The notes: a model not told the origin generated them from the letters alone. A stretch of 64,000 nt of DNA from Thermoplasmata archaeon (GCA_049965455.1 JBMFWH010000001.1:2874-66873), one strand, 5' to 3'. Numbered from the stretch's first letter, positions 23,984 to 26,637 are shown. Translations and numbers: made by a program.

Positions 23984-25162
23984 ATGCTGGAAATAAAAAA
24001 AGGAGTATATTCGATAGGAGTGAAAGACCGAAAGTTGAGAATATTTGACGTGATAATGAAAACGCCCAGAGGTACTTCTTATAACTCATATCTGATCATG
24101 GGCAGTGAAAAGATAGCAGTGATAGATACGGTTAAAAAAGGATTTGAGCAGGAGTTTATCTCTAATATAAAAGAGATCGTTGACCCAAGCAAGATAGATT
24201 ATGTGATCGTGAACCATACAGAATCCGATCATTCAGGCGCGCTCCCGAAACTTTTAGAGCTTGCACCAAATGCCAGGGTTTATGCAAGCAAGAACGCAAA
24301 GCCATTTTTGCCAGAGATACTGCACAGAGACATAAATCCGGTGCTGGTTGGTGACGGAGACAAGCTATCTTTGGGAGACAAGACTCTTGAGTTCATAAGC
24401 ACACCGTTCTTGCACTGGCCAGACACCATGGCCACATATTTGAGAGAATCCAAAATATTGTTTCCCTGTGATTATTTATCGTGCCATTACTGTGATGACA
24501 CGATGTTCGATGACGAGGCTCTAGATTTTTCATACGCATATAAATACTATTTTGACTCCATAATCAGACCTTTCAAACAGTATTCTATTAATGCGCTGGA
24601 CAAGATCGAAAAACTTGACATAGAAATCATTGCGCCGTCGCATGGCCTGATATTGAGGTCTGATCCAAAAAAATATCTGGACCTGTACAGAAAATGGTCT
24701 ACGGTCCCGAAGAAAGATTATAAGTCAGCGCTGGTAGTTTACGCATCATCGTACGGTGGCACTGAAAAAATGGCTGAGGCGATTGCGCATACATTACAGA
24801 AATCCAAAATCCATACTACCTTAATGGATCTTACAGGAGTGGACATTTCCGCGCTTGTAGATATTATAGAGAACACCGATGCATTGATCGTGGGCTCTGC
24901 CACAATACAGGCTGATGCCCTGAAGTTTGTATGGGACCTGTTGGCAAGCCTTACTACTATCGATGTCAGGGGCAAGATCGGCGCTGCGTTTGGTACATAT
25001 GCATGGAGCGGAGAAGCAGCCAAGATGATTGAGGATCGTTTGCGCGCGTTGAAGTTCAGTGTTCCAGAGCCTTTTATAAGGGCAAAGATGGTACCTACCG
25101 ATGAAGAACAGAAAAACGTGAAAGAGTTTGCAGAGAGACTTGCGATAAATATACTAAAATAG
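23984..25162 (+). CDS. fprA: flavodiiron protein (metallo-beta-lactamase plus flavodoxin domains)
   Basis: 392 aa. Diiron motif HTESDHSG and a C-terminal flavodoxin-like domain (VVYASSYGGTEKMAEAIA). Confidence 0.85.
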   Translation: MLEIKKGVYSIGVKDRKLRIFDVIMKTPRGTSYNSYLIMGSEKIAVIDTVKKGFEQEFISNIKEIVDPSKIDYVIVNHTESDHSGALPKLLELAPNARVYASKNAKPFLPEILHRDINPVLVGDGDKLSLGDKTLEFISTPFLHWPDTMATYLRESKILFPCDYLSCHYCDDTMFDDEALDFSYAYKYYFDSIIRPFKQYSINALDKIEKLDIEIIAPSHGLILRSDPKKYLDLYRKWSTVPKKDYKSALVVYASSYGGTEKMAEAIAHTLQKSKIHTTLMDLTGVDISALVDIIENTDALIVGSATIQADALKFVWDLLASLTTIDVRGKIGAAFGTYAWSGEAAKMIEDRLRALKFSVPEPFIRAKMVPTDEEQKNVKEFAERLAINILK

Positions 25163-25227
25163 CGTTTTCAAAAACATGTAAAACCATGTCGGATAAAATT
25201 AATATAGGCATAGAGGTGATGAATGAT
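25085..25227 (+). repeat. direct repeat copy 1 (last 26 codons of fprA plus downstream spacer)
   Basis: Aligns with 26493..26635. The coding part is 68/78 nt identical. The spacer shares cggataaaattaatata and gaatgat. Confidence 0.9.
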
Positions 25228-25407
25228 GGACATTTTCTAAAAACCTATATGTTTACTGGGCTTTTACTATACCCAGTAACAGAAATATTTATTCATGGGC
25301 ACTTAATAACCATAATTATGAACTATTTTGAATGCGTTTTTTGATTTAAGTTAGAAATCGAGCTATTATCATAAATTTTAATATAGTTTATTAGATATTG
25401 TTTTTTT

Positions 25408-25938
25408 GTGAAAGCGAAATTAACAATATTTACTATTGGATACTCTACTCTAGATATTAATAAGTTTCTTGATATATTGAAATCGCACGGAATAAAACAG
25501 CTGGTAGATGTGAGAACAATACCGAGATCAAGAGCCAGGCCTGAGTTTAATGAGCAAGAACTGAAAATATCGTTAGAAAAAAACAGTATCAAGTATATGC
25601 ATATGATCGAGTTAGGAGGGTTAAGAAAACCTGTGAAAGGGTCTATAAATACAGCATGGCAAAACGCAAGCTTTAGAGGCTTTGCCGACTATATGCAGAC
25701 TGATCAGTTTTGGAGTGCGATATCCGAACTTATGAAGATTGCGGCAGAGCAAAAAACAGTATTGATGTGTGCTGAAGGAAACCCGTATCGGTGTCATAGG
25801 TCCCTAATTGCCGACGCGCTAGTGGCAAACGGCGTTGCAGTAAACCATATTTCAACTGCAAAGTCTGCCAAAGAGCATAAGATCACAGCATTTGCACAGA
25901 TAAAAGATGGCAGATTGACATATGTGAAAAATGATTAG
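25408..25938 (+). CDS. DUF488-family protein
   Basis: 176 aa with a GTG start. The N-terminus (IFTIGYS) and RCHRSLIA pattern are typical of DUF488. Confidence 0.7.
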   Translation: MKAKLTIFTIGYSTLDINKFLDILKSHGIKQLVDVRTIPRSRARPEFNEQELKISLEKNSIKYMHMIELGGLRKPVKGSINTAWQNASFRGFADYMQTDQFWSAISELMKIAAEQKTVLMCAEGNPYRCHRSLIADALVANGVAVNHISTAKSAKEHKITAFAQIKDGRLTYVKND

Positions 25939-26512
25939 ATATATAGTTCCTGAGAATGCAACATTGTTATTTGTGGGCATAAATCCCCATCCAGGATCAT
26001 ATCTTCGGGGAGTGCCTTTTTCAAACAACAAAACGTTCTGGTATAATCTTGCAGATGCAGGGTTTATTGATAAAGATCGAATTTATCTAAAGGATGACAG
26101 AAAGCTAAAACATTTTTATTTGTACGAGTTCTCGAAAAAATTTGGATATGGCTTTATAAATCTTGTAGACAGACCCACCATAAATACGAGCGGTTTAAAA
26201 AGAGGGGAAGAAGAATATGGTGTCAAGCGCTTGAACAAGGCAATAAAAATCAAGAAGCCAGTAGTGATTTGCTTTATTGGAAAAATTACCTATAGCAGGT
26301 ACACAGGAAACAGCAATTTTAAGTTAGGGGTTCAGAAAGAAACTATTTATGATAGTAAAGTTTTTGTTTTGAGTTTTCCCATACGCGGTCCTAGATCAAT
26401 CAGAATCGGTGAGTTACTGGAGCTTAAGAGATATTTAGATGGACTAAGCAGCGAAAAAGCATTCAATTATGCATTTCAATTTGCTAATAGCGAAGATGGT
26501 ACCTACCGATGA
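25931..26512 (+). CDS. mug: G:U/T mismatch-specific DNA glycosylase (UDG family 2, MUG/TDG-like)
   Basis: FVGINPHPGS...PFSNNKTFWYNLADAGF parallels the MUG GINPG...PF...N.FW...AGF pattern. The last 6 codons and the stop lie inside repeat copy 2 in another frame. Confidence 0.75.
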   Translation: MIRYIVPENATLLFVGINPHPGSYLRGVPFSNNKTFWYNLADAGFIDKDRIYLKDDRKLKHFYLYEFSKKFGYGFINLVDRPTINTSGLKRGEEEYGVKRLNKAIKIKKPVVICFIGKITYSRYTGNSNFKLGVQKETIYDSKVFVLSFPIRGPRSIRIGELLELKRYLDGLSSEKAFNYAFQFANSEDGTYR

Positions 26513-26570
26513 AGAGCAGAAAAATGTGAAAGAGTTCGCGGAGCGAATTGCAAAAATTATACTTAAATAG
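26493..26570 (+). pseudogene. orphan 3' fragment of a flavodiiron (fprA-like) gene; the repeat copy 2 extends to 26635
   Basis: It encodes KMVPTDEEQKNVKEFAERIAKIILK*, versus ...ERLAINILK* at the real fprA end. There are 10 nt differences, of which 7 are synonymous. No upstream coding continuation exists in that frame. Confidence 0.85.
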
Positions 26571-26637
26571 AGCATCTTCAAATCACTTGAAATCTGCCGG
26601 ATAAAATTAATATATGATTAGATGTATCGAATGATTT

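Follow-up and report, generated by a model that had tools for sequence, protein, structure and literature searches.

The stretch of 64,000 nucleotides from a Thermoplasmata archaeon analysed here (the window) contains a two-gene unit coding for a DUF488 protein and a MUG-type DNA glycosylase. The unit lies between fprA, the gene of a flavodiiron protein, and a gene for a pyridine-nucleotide disulphide oxidoreductase, and it is bracketed by two direct copies of the fprA 3' end and the spacer behind it. Probably this arrangement goes back to an old translocation by which the native DUF488-MUG operon came to lie in the spacer of 66 nt that separates fprA from the oxidoreductase gene, by illegitimate recombination at the level of microhomology with duplication of the target and not by a site-specific reaction. 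The first-pass annotation had regarded the unit as a foreign cassette that arrived with, or beside, a foreign fprA 3' end.

The window was treated as contig JBMFRU010000002.1 of the metagenome-assembled genome (MAG) GCA_049967915.1 (Thermoplasmata archaeon). Its lineage is called W, and the relatives were sorted into the lineages A (L164-L167), B (L168-L173 and L184) and C (L001 and L082) with L162 as outgroup. The FprA proteins of the three sister lineages are 94-95 % identical to that of the window; the differences among W, A, B and C amount to 21-28 residues in a star-like manner, those to the outgroup to 45-52 residues. At the DNA level, the flanking genes of W are 85-91 % identical to those of A and C. 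Four independent assemblies carry an identical MUG in the same arrangement, which is therefore no assembly artefact.

Insertion and target duplication behind fprA

The two repeat copies are situated at 25085..25227 (H1) and 26493..26635 (H2), 1408 nt apart and in direct orientation, with the genes for DUF488 and MUG between them. Their homology, already seen in the first pass, was confirmed by BLAST (79.7 % identity over 148 nt, E 1.6e-30) and by a local alignment score of 84 versus 11.2 ± 1.7 in 500 shuffles; without gaps 109 of the 143 positions are identical, and the longest identical run comprises about 23 nt (by eye). The true extent of the homology is larger, from about 25072/25082 to 25230 and from about 26480/26490 to 26642, and takes in the pentanucleotide ATGGA with which the oxidoreductase gene begins. 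Neither a third copy of the repeat nor an fprA paralogue was found in the window.

In lineages A (L164-L167) and C (L001, L082) fprA is followed by a spacer of 65-66 nt and directly thereafter by the oxidoreductase gene, so that the uninterrupted junction which had been proposed as a check indeed exists. The single unit of fprA end and spacer in L001 aligns to both window copies (to H1 with its positions 1906-2055), and the ATGGA in H1 is a relic of the oxidoreductase start. Judged by these empty junctions, the window carries an insertion of about 1.25 kb plus a target duplication of about 155 nt relative to its relatives.

The assemblies with the empty sites also encode the closest homologues of MUG (81-86 % identical): locus L174 comes from GCA_038878395.1 like L164, and L176 from GCA_031961865.1 like L001. 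In L174, L175 and L176 the gene order of this home locus is MFS and Metallophos (both on the minus strand), DUF488, MUG, an MqnA/VitK2_biosynth-like gene, a zinc-dependent alcohol dehydrogenase (ADH) and, again on the minus strand, EncFtn; in L177 the DUF488-MUG pair and the start of the next gene are visible. The DNA identity to the window is 88 % (L174), 85.5 % (L176) and 91.5 % (L163) for DUF488 and 83.7 % (L174) and 88.8 % (L176) for MUG. Taken together, the cassette shows 84-89 % DNA identity to lineages A and C and its flanks 85-91 %. Its G+C content of 0.36-0.39, compared as suggested earlier, is flank-like as well.

In the W lineage the home locus is vacated. The contig L182 (GCA_049967915.1 JBMFRU010000022.1), taken as part of the window's assembly, carries MFS, ADH and EncFtn, but it is homologous to L176 only up to 44 nt past the MFS start (L176 1838) and again from 39 nt ahead of the ADH start (L176 4869). 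The intervening 3,030 nt of L176 with Metallophos, DUF488, MUG and the MqnA-like gene are replaced in L182 by 917 nt with an OB-fold (Ssb-like) gene. The W-lineage protein accessions show just two genes between MFS and EncFtn, and no MqnA-like orthologue of the W lineage was present in the homologue list or the 90 % cluster. Since the home block is vacated in L182, the window holds the only DUF488-MUG copy of its genome, and the pair was translocated, not gained. With a home locus in the empty-site genomes, its loss in W, and divergence and G+C content matching the flanks, DUF488-MUG belongs to this Thermoplasmata clade as a native operon of translationally coupled genes and is not foreign cargo, contrary to the first proposal.

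The replacement segment with its 153-aa OB-fold (Ssb-like) gene is located at L182 4231-5186 (L182rc 5006-5922). At the end of the same contig, 2.3 kb beyond EncFtn, an open reading frame (ORF) with a faint DDE transposase hit was found.

DUF488 and MUG do occur together elsewhere, which the first pass had proposed to check. In distant Thermoplasmataceae the overlapping pair is kept in another context (GTPase, DUF488, MUG, acylphosphatase), and across the Thermoplasmata it occurs in at least four genomic contexts, down to 55 % MUG identity, with an overlap of 8-35 nt. The pair occupies positions 25408-26512 in the window, 7478-8519 in L174, 2785-3817 in L176, 312-1353 in L177, 2339-2985 in L163 and about 2440-3560 in L178-L181. 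The closest relative of the window cassette (about 92 % DNA identity) is found at L163 720-2985 (Logan SRR7903764). There, the orthologue of the home-locus ADH is inverted directly upstream of DUF488 with SCP2 beyond, which is a third arrangement of the same genes.

Junctions and the proposed course of the translocation

The right junction is preserved in the C-terminus of the glycosylase. A normal MUG has 169-172 aa and ends with ...YLD(S/G)L; in the window its own stop codon is gone and the protein has 193 aa. The ORF reads on through 26449-26487, which is 89.7 % identical (E 3.5e-8) to an interior part of the MqnA-like gene (L176 4590-4628) in that gene's own frame (peptide SEKAFNYAFQFA vs SEKAFSYALQFAKG), and then enters the orphan fprA end. 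It was correctly recognised before that the last six codons (EDGTYR) and the TGA stop are taken from the orphan copy in a different frame, yet the non-native tail is longer and comprises 21 residues. At the joint between the MqnA-like fragment and fprA, the fprA sequence TTTTATAAGGGCAAAGATGG and the MqnA-like sequence TTTGCTAAGGGAGCAGATCC match at 13 of 20 positions around a TAAGGG core (TTT..TAAGGG..AGAT). The window sequence TTTGCTAATAGCGAAGATGG is of the MqnA type left of this core and of the fprA type right of it. Judged from the relatives, the joint is a microhomology junction of the kind produced by microhomology-mediated end joining (MMEJ). The microhomologies used in MMEJ range from 4 to 20 bp, and archaeal examples have been listed (PMC8708640).

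At the left end, the similarity to the copies at the home locus starts at position 25373 (paired with L176 2752), 35 nt upstream of the GTG start codon of DUF488. It includes the TATA-like box at 25376-25386, and the cassette therefore seems to have brought its own promoter. The preceding left filler (25231-25372) has no significant match in the 184 fetched loci or elsewhere in the window and belongs to no Rfam family. In addition, it resembles neither the intergenic DNA ahead of DUF488 in L163 and L174-L177 nor the segment that replaced the home block in W. An inverted 17/18 match between the filler and the W home locus was dropped, as matches of the same quality arise by chance at other places in the window. 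The hairpin at 25253..25279 which the first-pass annotation had pointed out does exist, with a stem of 8 bp and a loop of 11 nt, but it folds no better than shuffled sequence (z = -1.0); neither a terminator-like site nor an Rfam family was detected there.

The most likely course of events would start with a break or a stalled fork at the oxidoreductase start, repaired illegitimately with home-locus sequence that comprised the promoter, DUF488, MUG and a portion of the MqnA-like gene. Thereafter, synthesis or joining would have come back to the fprA locus at the TAAGGG microhomology, about 155 nt upstream of where it had departed, and by this return upstream the fprA end and the spacer would have been copied a second time. 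The gap from the MUG stop to MqnA codon 216 may reflect a further template jump or a later deletion. As to the pathway, a single templated insertion, of the type of microhomology-mediated break-induced replication (MMBIR) or synthesis-dependent MMEJ, is conceivable, or a larger duplication or insertion that was trimmed by two microhomology deletions. The home block would have been lost afterwards or in a linked event, with the 917-nt OB-fold segment in its place. H1 has stayed the working fprA end, while the coding part of H2 is probably dead and its spacer presumably still acts as the oxidoreductase promoter.

The fate of the orphan fprA end was followed by the changes in its coding part. The 78-nt coding stretch contains 10 differences, 7 synonymous and 3 non-synonymous, and the peptides end with ...ERLAINILK* and ...ERIAKIILK*, exactly as noted in the first pass; the conclusion drawn there, that the orphan diverged under coding selection in another lineage, is not supported. 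With a neutral synonymous fraction of 0.205, 7 of 10 corresponds to a P of 0.001 if all changes were neutral, a raw value that mixes the changes of two branches. The 11 differing sites of the 81-nt coding part were polarised with lineages A, B and C and the outgroup. Two sites changed in the live H1 only (GAA and GCG, both synonymous), one changed in both copies (codon 22: ATA in H1, AAA in H2, ACA in A and C), three are ambiguous third-position polymorphisms that vary among the lineages too, and five changed in the orphan only. If codon 22 and the TTC site are included, the orphan itself has acquired 4 synonymous changes and 3 non-synonymous ones (L to I, T to K, N/H to I), with a P of 0.036 in a uniform model, or 0.105 without the TTC site. 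In the four-taxon comparison the orphan has 6 coding singletons in 81 nt and H1, A and C have 2, 1 and 2, respectively (Poisson P 0.007), which makes the orphan about 3.6-fold faster. The spacers show 7, 7, 6 and 3 singletons per about 70 nt, and the coding rate of the orphan is nearer to this spacer rate. Because of the polarised 4:3 ratio and the elevated singleton rate, the orphan looks like a dead fragment which drifted largely neutrally in place. That it might be the end of a longer gene was rejected, as its frame stays open for only 40 codons and the longest ORF has 33 aa.

A closer donor of the orphan, for which the first pass had proposed to search, was not found: none of 6200 FprA homologues (from a search of 5.8 billion proteins) or of the members of the 90 % cluster ends with IAKIILK. 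The C-termini of the FprA homologues read LATHILK, LASHILK or LAINILK. Scans of genomes and metagenomes yielded only lineage-C relatives above 45 % identity.

The divergence between H1 and H2 (86 % identity in the coding part, 67 % in the spacer) equals that of either copy to lineages A and C. Four-taxon parsimony, asking whether H2 is a sister of H1 or an outsider, gave informative sites of 3:2:4 and did not group H1 with H2. As the copies are as different as the lineages, the duplication may be about as old as the W/A/C radiation, or one copy was later overwritten from a relative, or H2 is of other source. An imported tract at the 5' end of the oxidoreductase gene was not detected; the W-A and W-C identities follow the A-C identity.

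Known systems and rival explanations

Among the genes within 10 kb on either side of the insert, a Pfam scan called neither an integrase nor a transposase, and the insert itself holds only DUF488 and MUG. The former statement that the window has no integrase thus holds for this scanned range. Furthermore, no tRNA gene occurs between window positions 10000 and 42000, no Rfam family matches between 24900 and 26800, and the ends of the insert show no terminal inverted repeats.

Like an integrative element or island at a gene 3' end, the locus has direct repeats by which the 3' end of the target gene is rebuilt and its function kept. In contrast to such elements, it has neither an integrase within 10 kb nor a tRNA target, two native genes of the same lineage make up its cargo, and the repeat of about 155 nt is 79 % identical and includes a promoter and the start codon of the next gene; in addition, a fragment of a third gene abuts the would-be attR, and the insertion is seen in one lineage only. 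Transposons and IS elements differ by their transposase, their terminal inverted repeats and their short duplications of 2-15 bp. With integron cassettes the locus shares a promoter-proximal site that takes up a short, promoter-adjacent gene cassette, but an IntI-type integrase is absent within 10 kb, the cassette has its own promoter and the junctions are irregular. Homology-facilitated illegitimate recombination, reportedly described by de Vries and Wackernagel in 2002 for natural transformation, can likewise add non-homologous DNA beside a homologous anchor and create local duplications; here, the oxidoreductase gene of the window contains no imported anchor and the cargo is native.

MMBIR and fork stalling and template switching (FoSTeS) are named mechanisms from the eukaryotic and bacterial literature. 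With these and with MMEJ or synthesis-dependent MMEJ, the locus has in common that the insert is a patchwork from another locus, that the target is duplicated on both sides without a recombinase, and that one junction lies in a microhomology of 6 nt (perfect; 13/20 when extended). It differs in that it is known from scars alone, with copies diverged to 79 % identity and an uninformative left junction. Without an integrase within 10 kb, with native cargo and irregular junctions, the locus resembles an att-flanked island only superficially and matches the scars of microhomology-mediated illegitimate recombination with a templated insertion.

A possible, clearly less probable course would be a staged one. 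The home block would have landed together with a larger target duplication including a second functional fprA, and two deletions, from the MUG stop to MqnA codon 216 and from MqnA codon 229 to about fprA codon 364, would have trimmed it to the 155-nt orphan. Seen against the home arrangement, the two internal junctions have the appearance of simple deletions, the MqnA/fprA one (junction B) with microhomology, and the intermediate rate and mild synonymous excess (4/7) of the orphan fit a period in a live second fprA; the staged variant was rated equally compatible with the data as a single event. However, it takes three events where one would do, intermediate genomes are not known and no second fprA is present in the window, and the numbers are too small to demand a selected phase. 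Import from a sister lineage which already possessed a MUG-MqnA'-fprA' fusion, by recombination homologous on the right and illegitimate on the left, is unlikely. Such an import would account for the duplication without a staggered break and for an H2 as distant from H1 as other lineages are, and allele swapping does occur here, as seen in the lineage-B oxidoreductase gene. But the 5' part of the window oxidoreductase gene carries no imported tract, the loss of the block at the W home locus fits an internal move, and the original rearrangement would merely be shifted into an unseen donor.

Very unlikely is the arrival of foreign cargo with a foreign fprA 3' end, inserted site-specifically or in a Campbell-type manner at the gene 3' end, with an orphan that was under selection in the donor. 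The direct repeats of a gene 3' end around the insert, the intact target gene, the 7 of 10 raw synonymous differences (P 0.001 if all neutral), an H2 no nearer to H1 than to other lineages and the closest cassette copy (about 92 %) in the unplaced relative L163 would agree with it. It conflicts with the native home locus in empty-site genomes and its loss in W, with the missing integrase and tRNA gene, with the lack of any FprA ending with IAKIILK among the 6200 homologues and with polarised changes that show no clear selection; because of the MqnA-like fragment between MUG and H2, moreover, any donor must have already carried a dead fprA end. The integrative route considered in the first pass is not supported, given the missing machinery and the MqnA-like fragment at a microhomology joint. 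The reverse order, in which the window would show the ancestral state and the cassette would have been deleted from the relatives through the repeats, is hardly conceivable, even though recombination between direct repeats at a distance of 1.4 kb could remove the DNA between them. In the relatives the pair stands at another place, MUG ends with its own stop codon and the MqnA-like gene is intact; the MUG tail of the window is built from fragments of two other genes and is therefore the derived state. The chimeric tail and the intact home loci refute this order.

The translocation of the native operon by microhomology remains the probable explanation, and several points weigh against it too. 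The changes of the orphan still lean to synonymous ones (4/7, P 0.036), and its 6-7 changes are about 60 % of the full-neutral expectation, which would still allow for a phase under selection. The two repeat copies differ from each other as much as the lineages do, without a clear excess of common derived states. The unmatched left filler deprives the left junction of any information on microhomology, and the microhomology on the right derives from relatives, the window now reading TAATAG there. The repair pathway proposed for Thermoplasmata rests on scars. Finally, every genome is a MAG, so "same genome" depends on binning, though this is consistent across three assemblies.

Genes, promoters and variability of the region

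The features of the region are compiled in Table 1. Both domains expected for FprA are present (ODP/Lactamase_B at residues 31-221 and Flavodoxin_1 at residues 251-377, Pfam); its scores are under the equivalog cut-offs of the NCBIfam flavorubredoxin models. DUF488 matches Pfam PF04343 above threshold (1.2e-31; 110.3 bits, gathering score 22.2), and so does the glycosylase with the Pfam UDG superfamily (34.3 bits, threshold 24.3). The best NCBIfam matches of the latter are MUG/TDG, all of them below cut-off (PRK10201, MUG, 57.8 vs 144; TIGR00584, 41.3 vs 402.6), and it has the motif GINPHPG where GINPG is expected. The oxidoreductase gene is 90.6 % identical at the DNA level to that of L164 and 88.4 % to that of L001.

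Table 1 Features around the DUF488-MUG insertion (window positions)
Feature	Position	Strand	Remarks
fprA, flavodiiron protein, 392 aa, intact	23984..25162	+	last 27 codons inside repeat copy H1
H1, left repeat copy	25072..25230	+	live fprA 3' end (GCA AAG... from 25082, stop 25160-25162), 63-nt spacer, ATGGA
Duplicated oxidoreductase promoter-like block (BRE/TATA-like)	25190..25206	+	CGGATAAAATTAATATA; now directed into the cassette
Left filler, 142 nt, 27 % G+C	25231..25372	+	includes hairpin 25253-25279
Cassette's own putative promoter region	25373..25407	+	TATA-like TTTTAATATAG at 25376-25386, about 27 nt ahead of GTG
DUF488 gene, 176 aa	25408..25938	+	8-nt overlap with MUG start; PF04343
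MUG/TDG-like UDG-superfamily glycosylase, 193 aa	25931..26512	+	residues 1-172 native, 173-193 (SSEKAFNYAFQFANSEDGTYR) chimeric tail
MqnA/VitK2_biosynth-like gene fragment, 39 nt, in frame	26449..26487	+	now within MUG tail
H2, right repeat copy	26480..26642	+	orphan fprA 3' end (GCG AAG... from 26490, stop 26568-26570), spacer, ATG at 26638
Putative promoter block inside H2	26598-26614	+	ahead of oxidoreductase
Pyridine-nucleotide disulphide oxidoreductase, dihydrolipoyl-dehydrogenase-like, 460 aa	26638..28020	+	Pfam and NCBIfam matches

A block of 17 nt (CGGATAAAATTAATATA) is identical in H1 and H2 and near-identical in lineages A and C, whereas the rest of the spacer is only 67-75 % conserved and the spacers of H1 and H2 are 67 % identical to each other. 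The block lies 24-40 nt ahead of the oxidoreductase ATG, as expected for the transcription factor B recognition element (BRE) and TATA box of an archaeal promoter of a leaderless mRNA, and by this spacing it is a putative promoter. The copy in H2 presumably still drives the oxidoreductase gene. In agreement with the first pass, a copy of the spacer upstream of this gene, with the conserved BRE/TATA-like block, now also stands ahead of the cassette; there, the H1 block would presumably start a transcript (at about 25226-25232) that runs through the filler into DUF488-MUG, alongside the cassette's own promoter. Because the DUF488-MUG pair is conserved and overlapping, it suggests that DUF488 may work together with a base-excision glycosylase; no paper in the literature collection that was searched links the two. 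The gene nfo for endonuclease IV (window 23128-23982) is now 2 kb away from the glycosylase, and two base-excision-repair genes flank fprA, which is maybe a coincidence. The nfo product is the AP endonuclease that would process the product of the glycosylase.

The region behind fprA also varies in the relatives. In the outgroup L162 (1511-1638; FprA 87 % identical) there is no oxidoreductase gene between fprA and Hsp20, and a search of the spacer recognised no remnant of it; the fprA-oxidoreductase adjacency may therefore be ancestral or derived. Lineage B (L169 2375-3886, L170-L173, L184 1311-2701) has an unrelated spacer of 129-131 nt after fprA. Its oxidoreductase allele is 75-80 % identical to the others between flanks of 88-94 %, bounded by the stop codons of fprA and of the oxidoreductase gene, and looks like a divergent allele that replaced the former one. 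In the contig L168 (7180-7420) a deletion that begins within the spacer has removed the oxidoreductase gene except for a 3' remnant of about 190 nt. The FprA protein of L168 is identical to that of L169-L173, and the deletion is a presence/absence polymorphism in one population. The FprA variants P0126, P0127 and P0131 of lineage C, another change at the same fprA end, have 403 aa; their stop codon is lost and their tails (...THIL(N/K)WQFWEHLKSDG) run into the spacer.

Thus, five structures of the post-fprA junction exist among genomes with FprA 87-100 % identical: the W insertion, the swap in lineage B, the deletion in L168, L162 without oxidoreductase gene and the stop-loss variants of lineage C. 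It is nevertheless improbable that the junction is a preferred landing or exchange site for promoter-bearing gene units in the clade. Similarly doubtful is that the unit of 3' end and promoter would, in such a site, be a recombination substrate, as an integrase-free counterpart of a cassette platform, and not a chance target.

In the metagenome contig L082 (2973-3080), Hsp20 is broken off after about 90 nt and joined to UbiB/ABC1 sequence, either by an internal deletion or as an assembly artefact. The 530-nt gap upstream of nfo (window 22600-23130) has a G+C content of 0.23-0.24. In L168 (2626-5145) the same gap contains three extra minus-strand ORFs (468, 136 and 63 aa) without a Pfam hit, and it represents a second variable spot 1-2 kb from the insertion.

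An excess of synonymous differences can lead astray when the end of a live gene is compared with its orphan copy, because the live copy adds synonymous changes too. The locus resembles a mobile cassette with att-like repeats but is a relocated native operon, and it can therefore be counted neither as horizontal transfer nor as a new integrative element. Not a new system, it adds one more case to a known kind of event and calls for caution in the calling of cassettes. It would provide a natural archaeal example of a microhomology-associated illegitimate translocation with a long target duplication, for which donor locus, empty site and vacated site are all visible in related MAGs.

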